64,000 bases of DNA from positions 1 to 64,000 of the IMG/VR virus record IMGVR_UViG_3300022751_000018. The stretch is one strand, 5' to 3'. This document shows positions 4,385 to 51,820 of the stretch, piece by piece. The position numbers and the translations under genes were made by a program. Each line of letters opens with the position of its first letter. Position 1 is the first letter of the stretch. Below the pieces are notes generated by a model. The model ran no database searches. It was given only the letters and a program-made list of their open reading frames with translations, and had not been told where the DNA came from. Source of the DNA: a virus.

Positions 4385-6265
4385 TTAAAAACGAAATATA
4401 GCTCGCATTTTGCATTTACAATTCTTGCTTGTTATTTCTGTAGATGATACATTGAACCATCCATTATAACTTTCCATGGTGTAAACATGGCCTTCAAATA
4501 TACTACTGACTTTCTTCTCAACGCGAAACAATTTTTGGATGAGGGAATGACTTTGAGAGAGTTTTGCAAAATTAATAAAGTAGGACAAAGTCATTTGACA
4601 AAAGCCCTTAGGAATAGAATTAATTATATTTTGCCAAGCACTATTAAAATCAAAGCTGTGAATGCTAATGGCTCCAAAATTGTCGCAAGATATAATAAAG
4701 GAGAAAGCGTCCAATCTATCTCTATTTTCTATAAAGTTAGTCGGCAAAAAATTAATAGTATCCTTCAGGGGGAAGGAATTATTCTCAGGAATGGAAGTGT
4801 CGCTAGTAAAATCAGAATGTCTAAACTCACCATTGACGAAAGAAAACTTTTGAGCAAATCCGCCAGAAGAGCCAAGCTCAACAATCTTGGACATAAAGCC
4901 AGGAATAAAATTATTGATGATCAAATCGGAAAAGGTGAGGAAGAGCTTTTCAATGTCCTCGTCGCCGATGGATTTATCCCAGAAAGGCAGGCAATTATCG
5001 GTGATTATTGTATCGACATCGACCTCGGGCACATCGCCATGGAAGTTAAATTTAGAGCCAATATCAGTAAATTTGGAGCCGGAAGCCTCGATAGAATAAA
5101 AAAGATCAGCGAAAGTGGTCGTGATTTTTGTTTTTTTGTTATCAATGATCCTGTTGTCATAAGCTTGGCAAGAGACGAGATAATCTCCCTCATTCACGTT
5201 ATTGGCAGGAATCCAGCCCCTCAAGGTCAATATTGGGTGGTTAGGTGTACACTCGATAATCTCTCCGCCATTAAAACTTATGGAGACCATATCCCCTCTA
5301 TACATGTATCTCCAGAGGTTACGACATCCATTAGCAAGAGATACTATAGTTGATCCTGTAAAACAATTTGCTGGAAATCCAGGTAAACCTCGATCTTTAG
5401 AAGGAACTCCTAACGCGGCTTGCTCAGATAATAGATTGTCGAATGAAAATATCTCGCCGTCAATTTTTATATGCGAATGCCTCGGGTATCTTGATTCATA
5501 GGTATAAACCCATTCAAACTCTTTTATTCCTGCATTCATCAATCCTTGCTTGTTAATTGCAGTGTAAGCTTTTCTGGTTTGATCGTATGCTATTCTTGCC
5601 GCTCTACTGCTTACTAGTAAGTTATATTTTCCTAATATTCCAGTCGATTTTTTTTCTGAATGATTAATTATTTTTTCAGAATCTGGTATTAGTGATTTTA
5701 TTCCATCTCCTCCTTCGCTAATGGCGCGCATAACGGATCCAGAAACATCCGTAAAATATTTTTCTTGCAATGAATTTATATAAGTTATGTTTTCTTCAAT
5801 AATTGACTTTGAAATGTCATCAGTTCCTTTTTCCAACACTTCCTTTTTAATTGAAAGTCCGTCTTTCATTTTTCCGAAACTAAAGTTCAAGTTTACTAGG
5901 CTAATATTTTTTGTCTTACGCAACATTTCTTTTGCAATCAATTTTGCTCTTTTATTAAATATATATGAAAATTTAGCTATAAGTGAATTAATCAAAATCC
6001 TAGCTTGAGAGGATATGCTTTTATCGGAATCGTCCTCATCAATAGCAGAAAGTTTATTTTGTTTATTTAAAAATGATTCGAATGCTTTAGATGAAAATAA
6101 TTTTGATAGCTCAAGTGTTGTAGTAAATGTCATGTCATTAACAAGAATCATTATTTGATTATGATAATTTCTTTGAAGTGCAGCATTGTAATTAAGGGTG
6201 TGCCCCTTAATTACATTTTTATCACGATTAAGTAATCGTTTATTCTTCGTAGTCATTTGAATCAT
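4385..6265 (-). CDS. minor head protein, Mu F / SPP1 gp7 family, containing an intein
   Basis: N-extein carries YPRHSHIKIDGEIF, the MuF-like R..H..DG motif. The C-terminus carries SKNCKCK, matching the conserved NCRC end of the family. The frame stays open through an inserted Hint-domain-like segment. The start overlaps the portal gene, as is usual. Confidence 0.6.
   Translation of the reverse strand: MIQMTTKNKRLLNRDKNVIKGHTLNYNAALQRNYHNQIMILVNDMTFTTTLELSKLFSSKAFESFLNKQNKLSAIDEDDSDKSISSQARILINSLIAKFSYIFNKRAKLIAKEMLRKTKNISLVNLNFSFGKMKDGLSIKKEVLEKGTDDISKSIIEENITYINSLQEKYFTDVSGSVMRAISEGGDGIKSLIPDSEKIINHSEKKSTGILGKYNLLVSSRAARIAYDQTRKAYTAINKQGLMNAGIKEFEWVYTYESRYPRHSHIKIDGEIFSFDNLLSEQAALGVPSKDRGLPGFPANCFTGSTIVSLANGCRNLWRYMYRGDMVSISFNGGEIIECTPNHPILTLRGWIPANNVNEGDYLVSCQAYDNRIIDNKKTKITTTFADLFYSIEASGSKFTDIGSKFNFHGDVPEVDVDTIITDNCLPFWDKSIGDEDIEKLFLTFSDLIINNFIPGFMSKIVELGSSGGFAQKFSFVNGEFRHSDFTSDTSIPENNSFPLKDTINFLPTNFIENRDRLDAFSFIISCDNFGAISIHSFDFNSAWQNIINSIPKGFCQMTLSYFINFAKLSQSHSLIQKLFRVEKKVSSIFEGHVYTMESYNGWFNVSSTEITSKNCKCKMRAIFRF
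4487..5353 (+). CDS. antisense ORF nested in the intein, codon-aligned with it. Its status as a gene is uncertain.
   Basis: 288-aa ORF exactly complementary codon-for-codon to intein codons 304-593. Contains HTH-like segments (LREFCKINKVGQSHLTKAL, SISIFYKVSRQKINSIL) and a DUF559/Vsr-like PD-(D/E)XK-like stretch (EELFNVLVADGFIPERQAIIGDYCIDIDLGHIAMEVK). May still be a chance open frame. Confidence 0.15.
   Translation: MAFKYTTDFLLNAKQFLDEGMTLREFCKINKVGQSHLTKALRNRINYILPSTIKIKAVNANGSKIVARYNKGESVQSISIFYKVSRQKINSILQGEGIILRNGSVASKIRMSKLTIDERKLLSKSARRAKLNNLGHKARNKIIDDQIGKGEEELFNVLVADGFIPERQAIIGDYCIDIDLGHIAMEVKFRANISKFGAGSLDRIKKISESGRDFCFFVINDPVVISLARDEIISLIHVIGRNPAPQGQYWVVRCTLDNLSAIKTYGDHIPSIHVSPEVTTSISKRYYS
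4620..5365 (-). other. intein inserted in the MuF-like head protein (about 241-249 aa; C-terminal boundary uncertain)
   Basis: Block A CFTGSTIVSLANG begins at codon 301 (nt 5363-5365). Block B is ECTPNHPILT (the T..H...T motif). Candidate terminal Asn followed by Ser at FDFN|S (4643-4645) or IIN|S (4619-4621). Extein motifs resume afterwards. Confidence 0.5.
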
Positions 6266-9438: not shown

Positions 9439-9564
9439 TAAGCCTTCAATTGATTTATTTTTTACATTAGATCAAATTTAAACCATTAATTGATATAAAT
9501 ATAGACCTATCTGGTAGAGATAAGTGGTAGAAATGAAATTAATTAGAATTAATCGCAAAATCTA

Positions 9565-9593
9565 TTGCATACTTATCAGTGGAGTGGTACTAT
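9565..9593 (+). promoter_or_regulatory. sigma70-like promoter (TTGCAT, 17-nt spacer, TACTAT) preceded by the conserved ATCGCAAAATCTA box
   Basis: Member of a repeated promoter family (see findings). Points toward the tRNA cluster. Confidence 0.4.
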
Positions 9594-10191
9594 TTGTTTG
9601 TCGGTGGTTAGCGTGGTTTTTATTAGTTACATGCTGATAATCGACAAAGAGCCTAGCGTATGACTATCTCTTTAAATGGGAGTCATACCCATGCTATTGA
9701 CGAATAGCATTAGCTTTATGGATTTCGGGGTAAATTCACGCGGTCTGCGAGATGGACGATGTTAGTTGCTATTTATCATCTATAATAAATAGATACAGTT
9801 TTTTGAAAGATTAATTACTGTTCCGTCGATACTCTGCGGAGAAATTTAACTTTCAGACAACGTGTTGTAAGTTTGCAGTCTTAAAAATTGAAACTTTCTA
9901 GCTGAAGTAATTGATCAGCGAAAGAGTTGCTATTTCTCAACTAAAATAGCGGTGTACATTGTATGGACTTACACCTTAAAACTTATAAGAACATTCAGTG
10001 CATTTGTTAGTTTGGTACTTAAAATTAAATTATACTTTCTAACCTTCGCTTTCAGGGGACAATGTTTAAGACAATAATGAAGCTACGTTTTGCAAGTTTA
10101 CGGTAAATACAGGAAACTTCCACGAAATAACTGTTTACGGGTATTTCTACGGCTTTGCAAGTTTGCGCTAAACAGGAAACTTGAACTTTGT

Positions 10192-10428: not shown

Positions 10429-10434
10429 ATTATG

Positions 10435-10505
10435 TCTTTTGTAGCTCAATAGTGGCAGCACTTCCTTGACCAGAAGAGGACCTGGTGCGATTCCAGGCAG
10501 AAGAC
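10435..10505 (+). tRNA. degenerate tRNA-like element (possible pseudogene)
   Basis: Acceptor TCTTTTG/CAGAAGA and T arm CCTGG-TGCGATT-CCAGG are present, but the T loop has G in place of conserved U55. No regular anticodon stem can be drawn. Confidence 0.3.
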
Positions 10506-16225: not shown

Positions 16226-16673
16226 AGTTAAATTCTTGAGTCTTCCAGAGGATTTCAAGGATGGCATAAAGTTTGCTCAATATAATTTTTCTACTTTTAG
16301 GGCTCTAAATAGTATGCAGCTAGTCCAAGTTTCTGGAACTACAGACCTATTTATAGCTCAATTTTGCAATAGTGGCGGATTTATGTTTCTTCTTGAGGAA
16401 TGTGAAGCGTCATTTCAGCAAAGCGGATTTCCTTTTGAGGTTTTGTGGAGCGCTGATCTTCCTGATTACATTTATCAGTCTATTGTTGAATGTGAAAAAA
16501 TAAAAGATTTTAGAATTTTTAAAACATTATGCGAGCTTGCCAGGCAAAGAAAAAAGAATGCAGGAGTTTCTATTCAACTGTCATTTAAAGAGCTTGGCCA
16601 GATAACAAGCAATAATATTTCAAAGGAGCTTAGATCTAAGCTTAATCAATATGCTGATAAGGAGTATGAATAA
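16215..16673 (+). CDS. hypothetical protein immediately upstream of rtcB
   Basis: 152-aa ORF whose stop/start junction with RtcB overlaps (..KEYE* / MNHKV). Confidence 0.4.
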   Translation: MNHKVKFLSLPEDFKDGIKFAQYNFSTFRALNSMQLVQVSGTTDLFIAQFCNSGGFMFLLEECEASFQQSGFPFEVLWSADLPDYIYQSIVECEKIKDFRIFKTLCELARQRKKNAGVSIQLSFKELGQITSNNISKELRSKLNQYADKEYE

Positions 16674-18796
16674 TGAATCACAAGGTAATCTCTGGATTAT
16701 TTCATAAGCCAATTAAAATGTGGACGAATGGTTTGTCAGTTGAAGACGATGCGCTGACTCAGTTGAAAAATACTGCGTCAATGTCATTTGTTCGCCCTCA
16801 TGTCTCCGTAATGCCCGATGTTCATCTAGGCAAAGGGTCAACGATTGGGAGCGTAATACCTACGCAAGGCGCGATAATTCCGGCAACAGTTGGTGTTGAC
16901 ATTGGATGCTTTGTTGGCGAAACAAAGATTCCTCTGCTTAATGGAACACAAAAAACTCTTAAAGAGCTGGCAGAATATACAGAGCCGTTTTGGGTTTATT
17001 CTTGCAGTAATTTTAAAGTTGTTGCAGGTAAAGCTACTTGTAAAAAAACCAGAAAAGATGCTGATCTAGTTAAAGTTACTATATCTGGAGGTGATGAAAT
17101 AATATGCACCCCAGATCATAAATTTATGTTATTTGATGGTAGCTATAAAGAAGCCAAGGATCTTTCATATAATGAAAGTCTAATGCCTCTTTATAGAAAA
17201 TGGCATAAAAAAGATGGCTATGAAAGCTCTAACTGTGGATACAACACATCAAATTTGACTCATTGGGCATCATGGGAATCTATACATGGAGAAATACCCA
17301 AGGGATATGTTATTCACCACAGAGATCATTTTTATCTTAACAATGATCCAGATAATTTAGAGGCAATGACTGCAAGAGATCATTCAAAGCATCATAGGTT
17401 GGACAATCAAACATTTGACAATTCAAGCGAAGAGTTTCAAAAATTAAGAATGGCAGGAATAAAAAGAAGAGTATCAGATCCTGTGTCTTTTGAGAAAATG
17501 GTCAAGGTTGGAACTGAAAATATTAAAAAATACATGGAAGAGTCAAGAGAGGATTTTCTCGACAAGGTGAAGGATAATGGAAAAAGAGGGGCGCCATATT
17601 TACATAAATTTAATACGTCGCCACGCTCATGTGATGAATGCGACCATACTTCTAAGAACCCAGCGGCATTAAATTGGCATAAAAGAAAAGAGCATGGTAG
17701 TAATCATAGGGTCATTTCTGTAGAAAATCTTGGATTTAAGGATGATGTATATTGTCTAACAGTAGAAGACCATCACAACTTTGCATTATGCGCGGGTGTT
17801 TTTGTTCATAATTGCGGAATGATGGCCATTAAAACATCTTTGATGGCTTCAGATCTTCCCGATAACTTATTTGGCATTCGGTCGGCAATTGAATCGGCCG
17901 TTCCCCATGGTAGAAATGGCGGCCAAGGTCGAGACAAGGGAGCCTGGGGAAATATTCCACATGGAATAAGAAATATTTGGAATGCACAACTTTTAACTGA
18001 TTTTTATAAAATAGTCGATAAATATCCTTCACTTAGAAAGACTAACAATGACAATCACTTAGGAACTCTAGGCACGGGAAACCATTTTATTGAGCTCTGC
18101 ATCGATGAAGATAGTCATGTCTGGGTTATGTTGCACTCAGGATCTCGCGGCGTAGGCAATGCGATAGGCACGTTATTCATTGAGTTAGCAAAGAAAGACA
18201 TGCAGCGTTATTTCATTAACTTACCTGATGTCGATTTAGCTTATCTGCCAGAAGGATCTGTTTATTTTGACGATTACATCTTTGCATTAAATTGGGCTCA
18301 GAAGTTTGCAGCGTTGAATCGTGAAATCATGATGGATAATGTCTTGTCAGCGCTTCACTCAATCATAACGAAGAAATTCTGCTGTCTCGAAGAAGCAATA
18401 AACTGCCATCACAACTACGTTCAAAAGGAGCATCATTTTGGAAAAAATCTTTGGATTACTCGTAAAGGCGCTGTGTCTGCCAAGGAATCTCAGTTGGGAA
18501 TTATTCCTGGCAGCATGGGCGCTAAAAGCTTTATTGTTCGAGGTCTTGGCAATGCCGATTCGTTTCATTCGTGCAGTCATGGCGCGGGAAGGGTAATGAG
18601 CCGAACTCAGGCTAAAAAAATAATAACGCTTGATGATCATATCAAAGCCACGAGTCATGTCGAGTGCAGAAAGGATGAAGATGTGATCGACGAGTCACCG
18701 TCTTGTTACAAAGATATTGATTCAGTCATGGCGGCTCAGCCTGATTTGGTTGAAATTGTTCATACACTACGACAAGTAGTCTGTGTTAAGGGGTAA
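16673..18796 (+). CDS. rtcB: RtcB-family RNA 3-prime-phosphate/cyclase-end ligase, interrupted by an intein
   Basis: Extein motifs: MPDVHLGKGSTIGSV, GVDIG|C..., GTGNHFIELC, CSHGAGR. The spliced extein totals 78 + 328 aa. Confidence 0.85.
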   Translation: MNHKVISGLFHKPIKMWTNGLSVEDDALTQLKNTASMSFVRPHVSVMPDVHLGKGSTIGSVIPTQGAIIPATVGVDIGCFVGETKIPLLNGTQKTLKELAEYTEPFWVYSCSNFKVVAGKATCKKTRKDADLVKVTISGGDEIICTPDHKFMLFDGSYKEAKDLSYNESLMPLYRKWHKKDGYESSNCGYNTSNLTHWASWESIHGEIPKGYVIHHRDHFYLNNDPDNLEAMTARDHSKHHRLDNQTFDNSSEEFQKLRMAGIKRRVSDPVSFEKMVKVGTENIKKYMEESREDFLDKVKDNGKRGAPYLHKFNTSPRSCDECDHTSKNPAALNWHKRKEHGSNHRVISVENLGFKDDVYCLTVEDHHNFALCAGVFVHNCGMMAIKTSLMASDLPDNLFGIRSAIESAVPHGRNGGQGRDKGAWGNIPHGIRNIWNAQLLTDFYKIVDKYPSLRKTNNDNHLGTLGTGNHFIELCIDEDSHVWVMLHSGSRGVGNAIGTLFIELAKKDMQRYFINLPDVDLAYLPEGSVYFDDYIFALNWAQKFAALNREIMMDNVLSALHSIITKKFCCLEEAINCHHNYVQKEHHFGKNLWITRKGAVSAKESQLGIIPGSMGAKSFIVRGLGNADSFHSCSHGAGRVMSRTQAKKIITLDDHIKATSHVECRKDEDVIDESPSCYKDIDSVMAAQPDLVEIVHTLRQVVCVKG
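16907..17812 (+). other. intein (302 aa) inserted at the catalytic Cys of the RtcB GVDIGCGM motif; carries an HNH endonuclease plus a zinc-finger domain
   Basis: Starts CFVGETKIPLLNG and ends VFVHN followed by CGMMAIK. Internal HNH motif YVIHHRDHFYLNNDPDNLEAMTARDHSKHH and zinc finger CDECDHTSKNPAALNWHKRKEH. Confidence 0.8.
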
Positions 18797-31478: not shown

Positions 31479-31910
31479 TTAAACCTTCCCATTCATAACG
31501 TCTTTGTACATGCTCTCGGCTTCTTCATCGGTGATAGTCGAGACATCCACCTCTTTCGGCTCTTGAGCATCGGGATTGTCCATGAGCATATCTTGAACTA
31601 TTTTAGCATCGGCAGCACCCATCTTTCCGTCTAAAACTGCCTGAGCAAGTTTAAGTTTAATTTCTTCCATATTTTCAGATTTGATTTTTTTAGGCAGGTC
31701 TATGTCTACGCTAGTGTATTTTATTTTTGCAACTAAACTTTCATAGCAAAGTCGCATAGCGATAGGTTGGCCCATTTTAGCTTGCTCAATAACCGCTGAT
31801 ATTATTTCCTCACCCTGGTCCTTCACCATGTTGTAAAATCGCGTGCGCTCGCTTACAGCGCCCTTTGTTCGCCCTTTAGCATTACCGCTCTGTCCTTTTT
31901 TAAATGCCAC
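31479..31910 (-). CDS. hypothetical DNA-binding-like protein (N-terminal KKGQSGNAKGRTKG motif)
   Basis: A lone minus-strand gene inside the plus-strand block. Gly/Lys-rich N-terminus similar to motifs in small terminase-like or DNA-binding phage proteins. Confidence 0.3.
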   Translation of the reverse strand: MAFKKGQSGNAKGRTKGAVSERTRFYNMVKDQGEEIISAVIEQAKMGQPIAMRLCYESLVAKIKYTSVDIDLPKKIKSENMEEIKLKLAQAVLDGKMGAADAKIVQDMLMDNPDAQEPKEVDVSTITDEEAESMYKDVMNGKV

Positions 31911-33534: not shown

Positions 33535-34779
33535 TATCCTATGTCAGCGAGACATAGAGCAAACAAAGGAGATGGCAATGGAAAACGTAAGAGTATTTAT
33601 TCAAGTAGGTAATGATAAACAAGACCAACTTTTTCAATTTGAAACAAGATTAGGCTACGTAAGATTTCTAAATTACTTAGAAACAAGAGTGGGTGCGGGC
33701 AAGCATGTAGTAAAAATAATAAGCCCAGAAAGCGAAGAGATGTTTTTTTATGATGAGCTTAAAATGTTTTGCACAAGAGATGAGTATATAAATCTTAGAA
33801 ATGAAATGTATATTGAACAGAGAAATGCGCATGGTTACTACATGAGAACACGATAAAAGGAGATGACAATGTACACAGCAATTTTAAACGTAGGCTATGA
33901 AGAACCGATACAGTCTTTCATAAATAAAGACGATGCTATCAGTAGATCTCGCTTAGTTCTTGAGGGCTACGAATTCGATGAATACGAAAGTTCCGTTAAA
34001 GTTGAAGTTAGAGACGAAAAAGGCATAAAAGTTTGGGAAGATTACAAAGAAAATTTAGACTATTAAAATTTATTAAATAAGGAAATATTAAAATGAACGA
34101 AAATGAATCACTTTATTCTGGCGCGATGTTAGATCAATTTTTTGGAAAAACTGTTCAGCGTAATTTGTGGCCAATTCAGTCTGAAGAAGAAGCCGACGAG
34201 CACTGGGAAGATTTCAAAGAATCAAGAAAACCTATCGAGAATAAAAAATGAAAAATAAATATAGAAAACAAATGGCCGAGGAATACTCAAAAGAGGCTGC
34301 TTACGATGCTACGTACGATGTCATGAAAGCATTTGAATCAATAAAAAAAGAAAGCGGATTAAATAGATCGGCGCATCTTAGAGCAAGAAATTGCGCATAT
34401 TCTGTTGCTTACGACTCTGCTTTTGAGGCTTATTGTAAATCATTAAAAAAAGATGGGCTATTATGAACAAAGAAACTGAATCAAAAATGCTACATGAAAG
34501 AGAGCTTGAGCTTTCATCGAATCTTGAGACTTTGCTTTATGGTCACTTAATAGATGTTAAAGACTCATTGTCTGAGTCATTCGAAACTCTTATGAAATTG
34601 GGCCAAGATAAAACTTTTGGACTTAATTCTGGAACGTGTTTTGAGTCTTATATGCACAATGTTATTGATGTTCTTTTTGACCTTGCATCGATAAGGTCTG
34701 ATTTAGACGATGATAAAAAGATTTATCGCTATTTATTGTCTGCAATTACAAAAGCTAAATACAGACGAGCTTAGATAAA

Positions 34780-35100
34780 ATAATAGTCATTATTTACACA
34801 AAAACCTTTCAAATTATATAATCTTTTATTGATTAATTTTAAATCATTATGAGATTATTTATGTCTATAATTCAATTCTAAAAAAAATTTAAGCAGTAAA
34901 ATTAATTATTTTTAATAAAAGCAAAATTTCAAGTGGGACGTTTACAGGATAAAAAGGGACGTTTACAGGATAGAGTTTTTTCAATTTAAAAAAATCTGTG
35001 GATAAGTGCCACTTTTTCTGTGCATAAGGTTGTGGATAACTTTATTGCCCTGTGGATAAGTCTTTAAATAAAAGACGGATTATTACTCGGTGCTTGATTG
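34780..35100. other. putative origin of replication: AT-rich region, two 17-bp iterons and three perfect DnaA boxes
   Basis: TGTGGATAA at 34997-35005, 35031-35039 and 35051-35059, plus TGTGCATAA at 35019-35027. Iterons GGGACGTTTACAGGATA at 34935-34951 and 34956-34972. AT-rich tract 34800-34930. The region has no credible ORF. Confidence 0.6.
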
Positions 35101-36676
35101 TCATCTCATAAATGCTTGCTTGCTTGCCTTTTTGGAAGCGGCGGCGCTACGCATTTTATTTCGGTTTACGTTGAAAGAATATCTTACTAGAGTACTAGTG
35201 AAGATATTAAGAATAGTATTTTGTTTTTTAAACCTTGTCAATAGGGCAATAGAAAATATATTTTATTTGCGTTGTTTAACTTGATATTTGTTATATATTG
35301 AACTATAATTATCTAGTCATAAGATGATTAATGGGAGTATTTAATATGCAAACTGAGTCTTACACTTTACTAGATAAGGTCAATCAAGCTCGAGAACACC
35401 AAAAAGATTGGCTTGTTAGATGCAAAGAGAAAGGCATTGATATGTCATGGAAAGCGCATGTGGTTAAGAAAAAACCCATTAGTTTCGTTCCTATGAGTAG
35501 CCATAGAACCACCAATTTAGATTGGTAGCAGGAGATTAATTAATGAACACAAACATTTATCAAGTAAATGCGGGCCTTAGAGCTTGCAATCATTTTTCAG
35601 AATCTTACCCAGAAGAATTTACGCCTGAACTTTACGAATTTATTCTATTTTTAGAAGAGCTTAAAAAAGACTTGGAGGATTAATAATGGGATTTAACAAA
35701 AATACTATTTTAAAAAGTATAGAAGATTGTTTTAATAACATAAGCGAATCTGCGATTTGCTTGAATGATGGAAAAAATACAGATAAATGTAGAGAAGACA
35801 TTATTCTAAATGTAATGAATGGTATTCATGAACTTAGATCGCTTGAAAGTGAATTGCATGAAATTAAAGAGTCTATTTTACAATTAATGTATTGAGGTTA
35901 AATTATGAACTTACCTGAAATAATGAAAAGTGGTGATTATAAAAACGAAAGTTATGAATATTTTCTAACAAATAAGTCAGGGCATGAAGAAGATTTTGTT
36001 TTCTATTCAAGTAGCCTTCTATCTAAATGGGGATTTAATGACGGCGATACTTGGAGTGAAGAAAGCCTAGAAACTATTATTAATCAGTTTATTTTGCCTA
36101 ATTTAGATCAAAAAGTTGAAATATGTCACATATCGACTTCACACAATCCTTGGCGGGCAGAATCCATTGATGGCGTTGAAGTGCATCAATATTGGAGTGA
36201 TTACGAAAAATGCCCCGTAAAGATTACCCCGGAATTTTTATTTTTTAAACAAAAAGACATTTGGAAAGCATTAATTGAAAAAAGAGATAAAATATGAGCT
36301 TATTCGATAAAATTGATATTACAGATCGAGGCATTGATCAGATTGACAATATAAGGCATATTTTTAAGAAAATGGACGCTTATATTGACAGAATTATGCT
36401 AAAAGATATCGAAGGCACAAGCTCACGTTATAAAAGAGAGTTTGATATATGCAAGCAAAAACTTGAAGAAGCATGCTTTTATGCGATTAAATCTTGTTGC
36501 ATTAAAAATAGAAAATAATATATAATGCGCTTGAGTCTATAGCTTAATTTTAAAGCACCGTTTTTATAAGGGTGATCCTAAGGGTGAACAGTTTAGGTGG
36601 GCTCACAATCTGATCTACATTTAGTGTAGAAACAGTACCTGAGATCGTTATGCGATCACTGCTTTTAAATATTAAA

Positions 36677-45131: not shown

Positions 45132-45869
45132 ATGTTCTACGTGGAGCATTTAAGGAAGAGAGTGAGCGAAGATATTTTAGTTAGGCCTTCTGGCCTTGAT
45201 AGACTAGTTAATTGCCCAGGATCATGGGCTTTAGAAAAGCCTATCCCTAACAAAGACAGTCCTTATGCCATAGAAGGAACAAATGCCCATGTTCATGCGG
45301 CTAAGATATTGAGCCTAGATTTTTTTGATGCTGATTTATTTAACGATGAAAAACAGCTTGAAGGATGGTCTGGATTAATGACCTACTATAATCATGTTCA
45401 TGATTCTCTTGGCAATAAAAAGTCTTTGCTAAAAATTGAGAAAAAAATAAGCCTTACCAACTTACACTCTAAATGTGCTGGAACGCCGGATGCTTTATTT
45501 TATGATGCAGAAAGAGAATATGTTCATATTTTTGACTTTAAGTATGGTTATAATGTGGTTCATGCTGAAAAAAACTGGCAACTTCTTGGATATGCAAGTA
45601 AATTTATCGATGTGGTTCCAAGCACCACGATCTTTAAGCTAAGCATAGTTCAACCCAGAGCTTTAACAAAAGATCCGATACGAGTTAGCGAAGTAAGCTT
45701 TGATGGTATTCTTAATGCTAAAAGAACTATTAGATCAAAGATTGATGAGGCAATGTCGGATAATCCTAGGTTTAAAGTAGGAGAGCACTGCAAGTATTGT
45801 AAGGCTAGGTCTATTTGTGAAGAGTTTAAAAAAAAATCTAATGCAATTATTAACGAACTAAGGAAGTAA
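45132..45869 (+). CDS. PD-(D/E)XK exonuclease, Cas4/RecB-like, with a 4-Cys cluster
   Basis: GTPDALFYD ... VHIFDFKYG (D..D/ExK). Cys at LVNCPGSW plus C-terminal CKYCKARSIC. Sits upstream of recT. Confidence 0.5.
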   Translation: MFYVEHLRKRVSEDILVRPSGLDRLVNCPGSWALEKPIPNKDSPYAIEGTNAHVHAAKILSLDFFDADLFNDEKQLEGWSGLMTYYNHVHDSLGNKKSLLKIEKKISLTNLHSKCAGTPDALFYDAEREYVHIFDFKYGYNVVHAEKNWQLLGYASKFIDVVPSTTIFKLSIVQPRALTKDPIRVSEVSFDGILNAKRTIRSKIDEAMSDNPRFKVGEHCKYCKARSICEEFKKKSNAIINELRK

Positions 45870-46702: not shown

Positions 46703-47353
46703 GTGGGCAGAAGGTGTTTAATAAAGATGTTAACAACGCCCTTGAATGAAAAATCCAAGTTTTTTAAAGTTAAATTAAAGCCATTAGATGCTGATTTGTC
46801 TAATTGCTATATGATACAAGGCCATGACAATTCGATTAAATATGATACTGAGCAACATTCGATTAATACTAATTACGCATTTATTGACAATAAAGGAGAT
46901 ATAAAAATGGTAACATCAAATTCAGCAGTAGAGCTATCTACTATTCCTCAAGAAGAAAAAATTCACCATTTGCGTGAAAAAAGTATTTCTGAAGAAATAT
47001 TAGAAACCAAAGAGGCCATAAGCACGCTTAAAATGCGCTTAGAAGATCTTGAAAATAAAGCTATAGAATCTATTCGGGAAGGAAAAGAAGTTTCGGGGTT
47101 TAAAGTTGTGCCTCAATTTAGTCGAGTTAAATGGACCCTTAAAGATAATGACGTTATTAAGCTTGCGAGTGCTTATAATGTTATTGTTGCAAAACCTGCG
47201 AAGCTTGAATTGATTACTCCTCTTCAGGCAATTAAAGCAGGGATTCCTAAAGAGATTGTTAAGCAATATTCAAATTCAGAATTTAAAAGCTACAAGCTTG
47301 CCAATGAAGGTGACAAACCTGGCGTTGATGAATTTGATTTTGATTCACTATAA
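46703..47353 (+). CDS. hypothetical protein (coiled-coil middle region). Alternative start at 46727.
   Basis: 216-aa ORF in the recombination module. Confidence 0.35.
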   Translation: MGRRCLIKMLTTPLNEKSKFFKVKLKPLDADLSNCYMIQGHDNSIKYDTEQHSINTNYAFIDNKGDIKMVTSNSAVELSTIPQEEKIHHLREKSISEEILETKEAISTLKMRLEDLENKAIESIREGKEVSGFKVVPQFSRVKWTLKDNDVIKLASAYNVIVAKPAKLELITPLQAIKAGIPKEIVKQYSNSEFKSYKLANEGDKPGVDEFDFDSL

Positions 47354-48837: not shown

Positions 48838-49085
48838 AAAAACAGATATTAACTTATCTAGGAAATATGATAGCGTCATTTAAAGAGCAGGATAGGCTTG
48901 AATCTTTATGTGTTGCAAATTCATTAAAGACCTTTGTTGAGAAATTAAACGATCCCATAGTTGAAAGTAATTTTTCTTTTTATGAAAAACGAAATATTAT
49001 CAATTCTATTGGGTATGCCGTTCAAGAAGAAATTTTTAATGAAAAAACAGGGTTTCAACTAATTAAAAAGGTTTGCGAATTATGA
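48834..49085 (+). CDS. hypothetical protein
   Basis: 83-aa ORF. Confidence 0.3.
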   Translation: MKKQILTYLGNMIASFKEQDRLESLCVANSLKTFVEKLNDPIVESNFSFYEKRNIINSIGYAVQEEIFNEKTGFQLIKKVCEL

Positions 49086-49894
49086 GAACTGAAAAATTTA
49101 TATCAAAAGATGGATTCGAAATTCAACAGTTTGATAGTGGCGAGTGGGATGTTCGCCTAATCGACTGCAAAAATTTAAACACTGAAGTTATTTGGAACTG
49201 GTTTAAAGAGCCAGATATTATGATTCCTTTGCTTAAGGCAGATTGCATACGTCAAGTATTTGGGCTAGTTGAATTGACTTTGATTTGCAAATATCTTCCT
49301 TATTCAAGGCAGGATAGAGCTTTTAATTTAGGACAAGGAATACCTGCCCAAAGGATTGTTAGAACTTTGTTTAATCAGTTTGAATCAATAGAAACAATGT
49401 GCCTTCATAACTTTCCAATTCCTCATGATGGCGACGAAAGAATTTACAATGAATTTATTGAAATTAATAATAACAAAATAATTGTTTTTCCTGATAAAAA
49501 TGCCCCAAGACATTTTAATGTTAATGACTCAGTTCCTCATATAATGCTTGAGAAAATTAGGTCAGAAAATGGTATAAAATCTGAAATAACTTGCGAAAGT
49601 CTTCCTGATGGTGTTTCTGAGTTTGATATAAATGAATCATTTTTAATATGTGATGATATATGCGATGGGGGAAGATCCTTTGTAGAATGCTCTGAAAAAT
49701 TAAAAGAAAGATTCGGTCATGATATTAAAATAGAACTTTTAGTAGCGCATGGATTTTTATCCCGTGGTTTAGAGACATTAAAAGCAAGCGGTATATCAAA
49801 GATATATATAGCCAATTATGACTCTTACGAATATTTACGAGATAAATTCAATGATGATTATATTGAATTTCTTGGCCTCCAAATGCCATTTTAA
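49073..49894 (+). CDS. ribose-phosphate pyrophosphokinase (Prs)-like enzyme; candidate ADPR-PP synthetase (Adps) of NARP1
   Basis: LPYSRQDRAF (Prs N-domain motif). PRPP-binding loop FLICDDICDGGRSF. Shorter (273 aa) than housekeeping Prs. Directly upstream of the NAMPT-like gene. Confidence 0.55.
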   Translation: MRIMRTEKFISKDGFEIQQFDSGEWDVRLIDCKNLNTEVIWNWFKEPDIMIPLLKADCIRQVFGLVELTLICKYLPYSRQDRAFNLGQGIPAQRIVRTLFNQFESIETMCLHNFPIPHDGDERIYNEFIEINNNKIIVFPDKNAPRHFNVNDSVPHIMLEKIRSENGIKSEITCESLPDGVSEFDINESFLICDDICDGGRSFVECSEKLKERFGHDIKIELLVAHGFLSRGLETLKASGISKIYIANYDSYEYLRDKFNDDYIEFLGLQMPF

Positions 49895-50143: not shown

Positions 50144-51820
50144 ATGAACCCACTATTATTAACTGACGCCTATAAAACAGGCCATCATAAACAATATCCT
50201 GAAGGCACTACGTTGGTTTATTCCAATTTTACGCCACGCAGCAATAAGTACGCGCCTAAAGGATACGATCATGTCGTTTCTTTTGGTATGCAGGCAGTGT
50301 TTAAATTCATAGATCAAATATTCGTTAATGACTTTTTCAAAAAACCAAAAGAAGAAGTTTGTGGCGAAATGAAGCGTGAACTGTCGCTTTACCTAAATAC
50401 TGACTACGATGTTTCTCATTTTGAAGCGCTTCATGATCTTGGCTATCTTCCTATTTGTGTTAAGACAATTGAAGAGGGTTCCTTGGTTCCCATGAAGGTT
50501 CCTGTATTAACGATTTATAATACGCATCCTGATTTTTTCTGGGTGACAAACTACTTAGAAACTTTAATAAGCAATTTACTTTGGAAGCCTTTGACCTCAG
50601 CAACAATCGCCTTTCAGTACAAAAAGCTATTAACTGAATGGGCTTTAAAAACTGACAAAGAGAATGTAGATTTTGTTGATTTTCAGGCTCATGATTTTTC
50701 TATGAGAGGATTAAGTGGAATTGACTGTGCGGTTTTCTCTGGTCTAGGCCATTTAACATCTTTCAAAGGAACGGATAGCTTGCCTGCTATTTGGGGTGCT
50801 AGGCAGTTTTATGGAATGATAGGTTCAAAAGAAGATCCATTTATCGCTGGCAGCGTTAATGCAACCGAGCATAGCGTAATGTGTGCGGGCGGCAAAGAAG
50901 ATGAGCTTGAAACTTTTAGACGTTTGCTCTCAACTTACCCAACGGGAATACTATCAATCGTATCTGACACGTGGGATTTGTGGAAAGTGCTCACTGAGTA
51001 TCTTCCTATCTTACGTAATGAGATTATGGCACGCGACGGTAAGATTGTGATTCGTCCTGATAGTGGCAAACCAACGGATATTATTTGTGGCGATTCAGTA
51101 TTGAAATATGAAAATCTTAAAAAAGCAAAAGACAAATTTGAGCAGAATATTCATGATATGCAGGAGCATGGCGAACAGGGTGACGATGAATATGATTGCA
51201 TATCTAAAATTGGGGACAAGTTTTATAAATTGAATGCTGAGATTGAATGGAATCGTTACGATAAACAATATTATCATATTGAAGGAATTCGCATTTCTGA
51301 AGAAGAATATTATTTGAACAACAAAGAAAAAGGTGTCATAGAGCTACTGTGGGACATATTCGGAGGAACAGTAAATTCACAAGGCTATAAGGTTCTTGAT
51401 CCACACATTGGAGCTATCTACGGTGATTCTATTACGCTTGAAGTAGCCGAAGATATTTGTCAACGCTTACAAGCGAAAGGTTTCGCGTCAACGAATATTA
51501 TTTTTGGAATAGGTTCATTCACATATCAGATGAATACCCGAGATACCTTTGGCTTTGCCATGAAATCAACTTATGTCGAAATAAACGGCCAAGGTCATAA
51601 TATTTTCAAAGATCCTATTACGGATGATGGCATGAAGAAGAGCGCCACTGGGTTATTAGGTGTTGGAATTTTGCCAGAAAATAAAGAATTTATACTTGTT
51701 AATGGATGCTCCTGGGAAGTTGAAAAAACAGGATCATTACAGGAAATCTACAGAGACGGTAATTTTAGCAATCAGACTAATTTAGAAAATATTAGAAAAA
51801 AACTTAAGGAACGGTTATGA
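50144..51820 (+). CDS. nadV: nicotinamide phosphoribosyltransferase family (NadV/NAMPT-like); candidate Namat of NARP1
   Basis: N-terminal NPLLLTDAYKTGHHKQYPEGTTLVYSNFTPRS matches the NadV signature (DxYKxxH..YP....YS.FTPRS). Length 558 aa. Confidence 0.8.
   Translation: MNPLLLTDAYKTGHHKQYPEGTTLVYSNFTPRSNKYAPKGYDHVVSFGMQAVFKFIDQIFVNDFFKKPKEEVCGEMKRELSLYLNTDYDVSHFEALHDLGYLPICVKTIEEGSLVPMKVPVLTIYNTHPDFFWVTNYLETLISNLLWKPLTSATIAFQYKKLLTEWALKTDKENVDFVDFQAHDFSMRGLSGIDCAVFSGLGHLTSFKGTDSLPAIWGARQFYGMIGSKEDPFIAGSVNATEHSVMCAGGKEDELETFRRLLSTYPTGILSIVSDTWDLWKVLTEYLPILRNEIMARDGKIVIRPDSGKPTDIICGDSVLKYENLKKAKDKFEQNIHDMQEHGEQGDDEYDCISKIGDKFYKLNAEIEWNRYDKQYYHIEGIRISEEEYYLNNKEKGVIELLWDIFGGTVNSQGYKVLDPHIGAIYGDSITLEVAEDICQRLQAKGFASTNIIFGIGSFTYQMNTRDTFGFAMKSTYVEINGQGHNIFKDPITDDGMKKSATGLLGVGILPENKEFILVNGCSWEVEKTGSLQEIYRDGNFSNQTNLENIRKKLKERL

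Follow-up and report, generated by a model that had tools for sequence, protein, structure and literature searches.

A candidate plasmid-type replication origin with Rep_3-type iterons and DnaA boxes in a tailed phage without recognisable replication genes

Anatomy of a non-coding module

The window analysed here (the whole stretch of phage DNA under study, 64,000 nucleotides long, to which all coordinates refer) contains an ORF-free gap that spans 34775-35345. Because the next called gene begins only at 35346, the gap is wider than the 320-bp ORF-free region described in the initial annotation, whose absence of genes was itself borne out. The reading frame at 35090-35284 had been doubted as a gene, and this doubt proved well founded: the frame matches no protein family, is uncalled in the public annotation, and its homologue in a second phage lineage (L005) is broken by indels of 2 and 11 nt.

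A non-coding module of ~450 bp (34789-35241) occupies most of this gap. At its left end lies a candidate DNA-unwinding element (DUE), an AT-rich tract at 34789-34934 positioned 5' of two repeats; over 34789-34930 it reaches 87-88% A+T, in agreement with the AT-rich stretch first noted at 34800-34930. The repeats are two exact 17-bp copies of GGGACGTTTACAGGATA on the plus strand, 21 bp apart from start to start, which we refer to as iteron 1 (34935-34951) and iteron 2 (34956-34972). They are followed by an A/T spacer (34973-34996) containing a palindrome, AGAGTTTTTTCAA/TTTAAAAAAATCT, recovered as inverted repeat I15 in the repeat search, and then by four DnaA boxes, all on the plus strand and 25-87 bp from the iterons. 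Box 1 (34997-35005) is a perfect TGTGGATAA, reading TTATCCACA on the minus strand; box 2 (35019-35027), TGTGCATAA, ends 3 bp before box 3; and boxes 3 (35031-35039) and 4 (35051-35059) are again perfect copies of TGTGGATAA. The complement of box 2, TTATGCACA, fits the Schaper-Messer consensus TT(A/T)TNCACA, and all four boxes, three of them perfect, belong to the consensus class. Direct reading of the sequence thus confirmed the repeats, the three perfect boxes, the one-mismatch box and the common box orientation that had been reported for this region.

The part of the module to the right of the boxes (~190 bp, 35066-35241) had been overlooked, and contains a conserved leftward promoter together with conserved stem-loops. 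A conserved block (TAAATAAAAGAyGGwTTAT..CGrTGCT, 35066-35098) includes a 6-bp stem-loop at 35073-35094, and is followed by a GC-rich hairpin (35110-35156) with the apex GCCTTTTTGGA at 35126-35136 and by a palindrome, AATATCTTaCTAGagtaCTAGtgAAGATATT (35178-35208), which is a possible operator. The promoter, predicted to be of sigma-70 type (TTGACA-17-TACTAT, 35213-35241), lies on the minus strand and reads towards the hairpins, the DnaA boxes, the iterons and the AT-rich tract. Its predicted leftward transcript would start near 35205, at the palindrome, and run through a structured leader of ~150 nt into the boxes. Read along the minus strand, the order of parts is therefore DnaA boxes, iterons and AT-rich element.

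An E217-like genome without recognisable replication genes

Proteins from both ends of the window match a single 68,422-bp ENA contig, on which the two ends lie 4,281 bp apart. The length of this contig equals 64,000 + 4,281 + 141, in which 141 corresponds to the k-mer overlap of the assembler, and it follows that the genome, at 68,281 bp, is a closed circle or a circular permutation. The 4.3 kb outside the window carry tail genes only (E217 gp27-32). INPHARED contains no close DNA relative of the window, the structural module of which is E217/Pbunavirus-like (portal, Mu-F-like protein, major capsid, sheath and baseplate), and the host of the phage probably belongs to the Legionellales. Also present in the window are five tRNA genes and genes for an intein-containing RtcB, a polynucleotide kinase, NAMPT, a PRPP-synthetase-like protein, a RecT/exonuclease pair, an endolysin and anti-defence domains. 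RtcB, NAMPT and three DUF285/unknown proteins are the products of the largest non-structural ORFs. Most of the small ORFs have no assigned function and could conceal a novel initiator or loader.

A Pfam scan of all 113 non-structural ORFs matched 18 families, among which there was no polymerase, helicase, primase, loader, initiator, integrase or ParAB; repressor families and the Rep3 domain were likewise absent from the results for these ORFs. A PHROG scan named no replication genes among the matches listed (25 of 32 families). Searches of the closed genome for Rep_3, by tblastn with a plasmid Rep and with a profile built from three Reps, found none (best E = 0.3); as a positive control, the profile scored 1.6e-230 on the plasmid. 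The replication proteins encoded by the structural relative Pbunavirus PA5 are a Dda-like helicase and a second helicase, a split DNA polymerase, a primase and a ligase. When the PA5 replication proteins were compared with the closed genome by tblastn they gave no match, and only the polynucleotide kinase and the sheath, the latter serving as positive control, were found. No Phage_rep_O or loader family was found in the genome, and the module is non-coding, unlike lambda-type iterons, which lie inside the O initiator gene, beside a gene for a helicase loader. With no recognisable replication genes of its own, the phage must use host replication proteins, and so needs a site that recruits them.

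A single DnaA-box cluster beside the least stable DNA of the genome

Against an expectation of 0.70, the window contains three perfect DnaA boxes, all of them in the module. No further perfect box occurs in the closed 68,281-bp genome, of which this is the single box cluster. By our own estimate, the chance of finding three perfect boxes inside 63 bp is ~1e-7. The cluster is oriented towards the AT-rich tract, and 34789-34930 forms the least stable stretch genome-wide at both 100 bp and 130 bp, as calculated from nearest-neighbour energy over 68,281 bp. A repeat search of 34760-35340 revealed no repeated 13-mer or DnaA-trio units in the tract.

GC skew had been suggested as a check on an origin at this position, an extreme elsewhere being taken to speak against it. 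The minimum (9,218) and maximum (55,002) do lie elsewhere, and there is no inflection at 34.9 kb; however, both extremes coincide with switches of the coding strand. Since the skew follows the strand of transcription, this test cannot discriminate here.

The repeats match a family of Rep_3 plasmid iterons

Allowing up to three mismatches, GGGACGTTTACAGGATA has four matches in the 64-kb window against 0.26 expected (none of 100 shuffles reached four), and only the two exact copies fall in the module. A weak GTTTACGG similarity near 10.1 kb, considered as a second iteron-like site, was rejected as not above chance.

An iteron-pair scan of 241 million metagenome records matched one locus, L012 (= L037), in which four copies of the motif, spaced by 21, 21 and 22 bp, lie directly upstream of the gene (L012 2047-3399) for a 450-aa Rep_3 protein (Rep3_N, 1.8e-17; Rep3_C, 2.5e-17). 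This rep gene is flanked by a ParA gene and a ParB gene, and the replicon, which carries F-type transfer genes and csrA, is an F-type conjugative plasmid. Scanning genome contigs for iteron pairs gave mostly chance matches in GC-rich genomes, the relevant one being L018 alone, an uncultured gammaproteobacterial MAG contig with five iteron copies next to parA and parB; in IMG/VR the scan returned only unrelated Rep_3 replicons (L070) and other repeats.

The same iteron family, at 21-bp spacing, is carried by plasmids with a Rep 47-51% identical to that of L012/L037, and throughout this Legionella-type plasmid family the iterons are conserved across Reps of 47-100% identity. L065 contributes two further exact copies of the phage 17-mer, whilst Aquicella lusitana plasmid 3, with a Rep that is 37% identical, has five 22-bp iterons in which the 3' half, TACAGGAT, is the part shared with this family. 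In PLSDB, blastn with an iteron array returned 13 plasmids, every one from Legionella; one of these was examined in full, and there the array stands at the head of a parA-parB-rep operon. In the seven replicons compared, the arrays stand directly upstream of Rep_3 genes or parAB-rep operons; the exact 17-mers are those of L037/L012 and L065, whose iterons upstream of Rep_3 genes are identical to iteron 1 of the phage. L037-type replicons also have an AT-rich region 5' of the array, as in the phage, and the G+C content of the plasmids is 32-36%, compared with 35.7% for the phage. Judged by sequence, spacing and context, the phage repeats read as iterons of Rep_3 plasmid replicons, which points to an origin of plasmid type (Rep plus DnaA) and not of the pure DnaA/oriC type. 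The DnaA-dependent origin proposed in the initial annotation is thus supported in its origin-like architecture, which comprises a single box cluster, the least stable DNA, conserved motifs and a genome without replication genes, but has to be revised as to its type, as the repeats correspond to Rep_3 plasmid iterons and stand here without a matching rep.

The repeats were also considered as a ParB centromere, and this reading was rejected. They are non-palindromic, and the plasmids carry separate par-operator repeats and parS-like palindromes, which argues for Rep iterons rather than ParB sites; moreover, the arrays occur beside rep where a second parB is absent.

The iteron sequence and its spacing of 21-22 bp are shared with Legionellales Rep_3 replicons (L037/L012, L065, L066, the L. 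pneumophila pLPP-type and Aquicella lusitana plasmid 3). These differ from the phage in having four to six iterons, a Rep_3 gene and parAB, whereas the phage combines two iterons with four DnaA boxes and lacks both rep and par. None of the plasmid origins examined in this respect (L037/L012, L018, L032 and L033) has a perfect DnaA box nearby, and the phage module is therefore a composite rather than a copy. Beyond the iterons, no sequence common to the module and the plasmids was found, and the phage and plasmid contigs come from different samples. A literature search of incomplete coverage found no described phage with orphan plasmid iterons.

Conservation of the module in a second phage lineage

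Only one other phage lineage, L005/L042 (IMG/VR 3300045391_002601), carries the module. Its shared proteins are 31-55% identical to those of our phage, and the two genomes differ in gene order and in the genes flanking the module. L005 has two iterons, 21 bp apart, with 17/17 and 14/17 matches (iteron 2 is the one matched at 17/17), and keeps two perfect DnaA boxes, which align with boxes 3 and 4. Identity is ~80% over the conserved block at 35066-35098, and a 45-nt block in the same comparison is likewise ~80% identical; in the stem at 35073-35094, two of the six pairs are changed on both sides with pairing retained. The 11-nt apex GCCTTTTTGGA of the GC-rich hairpin is invariant, inside stems that differ between the two phages yet still pair. 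At the aligned position on the minus strand, L005 has a promoter TTGACA-17-TACATT, with an unrelated spacer sequence and a -10 hexamer that matches at 4/6 positions, and the palindrome found at the same place is a different one (GATTC-taac-GAATC). Upstream of its iterons, L005 has a stretch that ranks within the least stable 0.3-1.7% of 13 kb. Short conserved motifs in diverged surroundings are suggestive of selection on binding sites, an argument from pattern and not from statistics; with the module in only two phage lineages, the evidence from conservation and covariation is thin.

Megablast of the region against INPHARED found nothing, and a distant blastn search found only a 29-nt match in Vibrio phage KIT04. 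The motif pattern TGTGGATAAGTNNNTAAATAAAAGA gave chance matches only, three in coding DNA, and a scan with a hairpin-based pattern found no locus besides L005. Amongst 24 DUF5681-anchored loci, the module is present in none except the L005 contig; the 5-kb contig of the 67%-identical homologue, L064, stops on the wrong side. IMG/VR yielded no relatives of the neighbouring proteins encoded at 34463-34774 and 35905-36297, nor did the word-indexed database yield a homologue of the 88-aa neighbour; PDB sequence searches with the three proteins common to both phages gave no match.

A proposed oriV-like origin and its counterparts

We lean towards the view, at a little better than even confidence, that the module at 34789-35241 is the vegetative theta-replication origin of the phage and is built like the oriV of an iteron plasmid. 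Its sequence is best read as an RK2-like, plasmid-type theta origin that would use host DnaA, with Rep perhaps supplied in trans. In such an origin, host DnaA would bind the four co-oriented boxes, and monomers of a Rep_3-family initiator would bind the two iterons, phased at 21 bp. Together, DnaA and Rep would melt the adjacent AT-rich tract and load the host DnaB/DnaC helicase, after which the host replisome would copy a phage that has no replication enzymes. The leftward promoter may fire through the ~150-nt leader into the boxes, thereby activating or priming the origin; such a role for the transcript may be envisaged by analogy with lambda pR, mioC/oriC and RNA-based phage origins. Neither the phage nor L005 encodes a Rep_3 protein; a protein that binds the iterons would hence have to be provided in trans, and we posit a resident Legionella-type conjugative plasmid as its source. 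DnaA may also be sufficient by itself, in which case Rep would act as a dispensable helper. The most specific form of the proposal, in which a virulent-type myovirus has lost all of its replication genes and replicates via host DnaA and the Rep_3 protein of a resident conjugative plasmid, is put forward tentatively, as a scenario that we consider possible but on the unlikely side.

Several known systems share parts of this architecture. RK2 oriV has four orientation-dependent DnaA boxes, iterons and a DUE, and DnaB-DnaC is recruited by DnaA at the boxes and passed, aided by Rep, to the DUE (PMC4980987). The phage module resembles this IncP origin in the order of its parts, its four co-oriented DnaA boxes, its 17-bp iterons and its AT-rich candidate DUE. 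It differs in having two iterons and no initiator gene, whereas RK2 has five iterons and its own initiator, TrfA, of a Pfam family other than Rep_3; RK2 oriV, in turn, has no counterpart of the conserved leftward promoter and hairpins of the phage. P1 oriR and F oriS also combine DnaA boxes, an AT-rich region and initiator iterons, and P1 sets a precedent for such an origin on a phage genome (PMC4980987). Their parts are arranged in another order, however, with an autoregulated repA or repE adjacent, and they serve plasmid maintenance of a prophage, whereas our phage has no par, integrase or repressor families.

In E. coli oriC, R1 and the left-half TGTGGATAA boxes face the AT-rich DUE, and mioC transcription enters from the box side. 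The module is similar to this left half in that its co-oriented TGTGGATAA boxes face the tract and its predicted promoter reads in from the box side, but it has neither 13-mer repeats nor an opposed right-half array, and its iterons lie between the boxes and the tract. Extrachromosomal mycobacteriophage prophages have RNA-based origins (Wetzel et al. 2020, PMC7157519). Like the module as proposed here, these origins and the transcriptional activation of ori-lambda need no adjacent initiator gene and rely on a transcript or on transcription; the mycobacteriophage origins differ in belonging to another host group and in showing no evident sequence similarity, and a role for the transcript in the module is one that we only infer. 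The interpretation given in the initial annotation is partly supported, in a form narrowed to a plasmid-type origin with iterons and DnaA boxes but no initiator gene of its own.

Alternative explanations for the module

The predicted transcript could be the product for which the module exists. The module would then be a non-coding RNA gene or regulatory region, its promoter making an RNA of ~150 nt and its boxes and iterons acting as protein roadblocks or sensors, such that the length or level of the RNA is coupled to the status of host DnaA and Rep. DnaA-box complexes in E. coli can indeed block RNA polymerase, for example at asnC, and several features of the module would suit such a function: promoter hexamers conserved around a diverged spacer, one stem with two compensatory changes, an invariant hairpin apex, a palindrome at the predicted transcript start, and a self-contained layout with different neighbouring genes in each phage. 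We nevertheless consider this explanation improbable. The fold energy of the leader is not significantly below that of shuffled controls (z -1.5 and -0.2), no Rfam family matches the module at the gathering threshold or at permissive E-values, and there is no convincing conserved terminator. An RNA or regulatory function would also leave unexplained why the least stable DNA lies beside correctly oriented boxes and iterons, and would not account for the replication start of a phage without replication genes. It is, in addition, compatible with a transcription-activated origin, and hence not exclusive.

Slightly less probable again is that the module serves as a sink for initiators. Multiplying phage DNA would titrate or handcuff plasmid Rep and host DnaA, stopping plasmid and chromosome initiation and thereby freeing the replisome or disabling the plasmid, whilst the phage itself would initiate elsewhere. 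Plasmid copy number falls when extra iterons are present in trans (incompatibility), and DnaA is titrated by clusters of boxes of the datA type; the exact match of the phage iterons to plasmid iterons, and the presence of just two without a rep gene, count in favour of a sink. Against a sink stands the lack of an obvious gain over a single round of lytic growth. The tract prone to unwinding, the shared box orientation and the conserved promoter and hairpins would go unexplained, and no alternative origin or initiator is visible in the genome.

It appears very improbable that the module is an inert relic, that is, a fragment of a plasmid origin gained by recombination and not yet decayed. Its similarity to plasmids is confined to the iterons and there is no rep gene, as a relic would have it; yet two phages whose proteins are 31-55% identical keep the iterons, boxes, apex and promoter hexamers amid diverged sequence. 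Such patchy conservation would not result from neutral decay or recent transfer, and indicates selection on binding sites.

In T5-like phages, pairs of DnaA boxes 3 bp apart occur in the injection-stop region and are thought not to be origins (Davison, bioRxiv 10.1101/866236). The module resembles these arrays as a non-coding DnaA-box cluster in a lytic phage, with boxes 2 and 3 (at 35019 and 35031) also 3 bp apart, and the KIT04 match, TTTTTCTGTGGATAAGGTTGTGGATAAC, is 28/29 identical to window positions 35013-35041 and sits in a non-coding repeat region after gene A2 of this T5-like phage. A T5-like tether, in which DnaA at the membrane would attach to the boxes and so halt or anchor the genome during entry, is nonetheless the least probable reading of all: our phage is E217/Pbunavirus-like and not T5-like, the inverted-repeat architecture and terminal-repeat location of the T5-like arrays are absent (the repeat search found no IRD'/IRC' inverted repeats with a 52-bp spacer), none of the families listed in the general Pfam and PHROG scans (for PHROG, 25 of 32) names A1 or A2, T5 itself has its origins elsewhere and encodes its own replisome, the T5 model is itself a hypothesis, and the plasmid iterons would be unaccounted for.

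Implications for phage and plasmid biology

The analysis also points to a complete phage genome whose probable hosts are Legionellales, a group for which, to our knowledge, few phage genomes have been described so far. Genetic tools for Legionellales could make use of the ~450-bp fragment as a compact origin dependent on Rep and DnaA. If the module is the origin, a large tailed phage would depend entirely on the host initiation machinery by way of a plasmid-style oriV. The use by a phage of the initiator of a different mobile element would, if true, represent a new kind of phage-plasmid dependency, with effects on host range, plasmid incompatibility and plasmid curing. Were a plasmid Rep used, the replication of the phage, and with it its effective host range, would depend on a plasmid through DNA synthesis rather than through the receptor.

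Genome extent and gene content of the phage

The window covers 94% of a closed phage genome of 68,281 bp, circular or circularly permuted, which is completed by 4,281 bp from the contig L036 (5498-9778). The structural module of this phage is similar to that of E217/Pbunavirus. Pbunavirus PA5 carries polymerase, primase, helicase and ligase genes, whereas the window phage possesses none of these. Its counter-defence content, as revealed by a batch scan of 10.5-55 kb that located domains to this region rather than to exact ORFs, includes two Tad2-like domains and one Acb2/Tad1 hairpin domain, together with a NAD-salvage pair consisting of a PRPP-synthetase-like protein (49073-49894) and NAMPT (50144-51820).

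The RtcB RNA ligase gene (16673-18796) is interrupted by an intein with an HNH endonuclease, and the Mu-F-like head protein (4385-6265) displays a weak intein match as well. Two further ORFs (45132-45869 and 46703-47353) match consecutive portions of a single exonuclease family (phrog_69, DUF2800/PD-(D/E)XK), separated by a gap of approximately 830 bp containing 2-3 small ORFs; this arrangement suggests that the exonuclease gene was split by an inserted mobile element. A lone leftward gene within the rightward early region, encoding a DUF5681 protein (31479-31910, minus strand), is kept in all three related lineages, with 31% identity in the related phage L005 and 67% in the short contig L064. 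No TerS-like gene adjoins the large terminase gene of the window phage.

Non-coding region between divergent genes

A non-coding stretch of 750 bp (9439-10190) separates divergently oriented genes, with the terminase gene running leftward from it and the tRNA and early genes running rightward. The cumulative GC-skew minimum falls inside this stretch, which also contains two direct repeats of approximately 30 nt (TTGCAAGTTTrCG..ACAGGAAACTT; 10090-10119 and 10155-10182), and the ends of the ENA contig map to position ~9575. Immediately after the three-tRNA cluster we observed a tRNA-like sequence (10430-10505), called by neither ARAGORN nor Rfam.

DnaA boxes and AT-rich regions beside the iterons

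Across 35013-35041, a segment that takes in a pair of DnaA boxes with the 3-bp spacer between them and the flanks, 28 of 29 nt are identical to the T5-like Vibrio phage KIT04 (L001, 2995-3030), where the matching stretch sits in a non-coding repeat region. This identity may reflect a favoured context for paired DnaA boxes.

An AAACAC..GTGTTT palindrome is conserved in the AT-rich region upstream of the plasmid iteron arrays (L074, 1700-1725; L037, 1850-1880; L032, 2230-2250; L018, 918-935). This palindrome looks like a parS site or like a degenerate DnaA box; the phage module lacks it. In L005, two very small hydrophobic ORFs, 26 and 23 codons long (5202-5363), take up some of the AT-rich stretch that lies upstream of its iterons; if these are real, the candidate unwinding element of L005 would overlap coding sequence.

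Probable host

To our knowledge, few genomes of Legionellales phages have been described so far. In PLSDB, the iteron family (window 34935-34972; L074 1800-1960; the 13 matches H63-H75) matches Legionella plasmids only, and the nearest Rep relatives come from Coxiella, Aquicella and Legionella. The host of the phage is therefore probably a member of the Legionellales.
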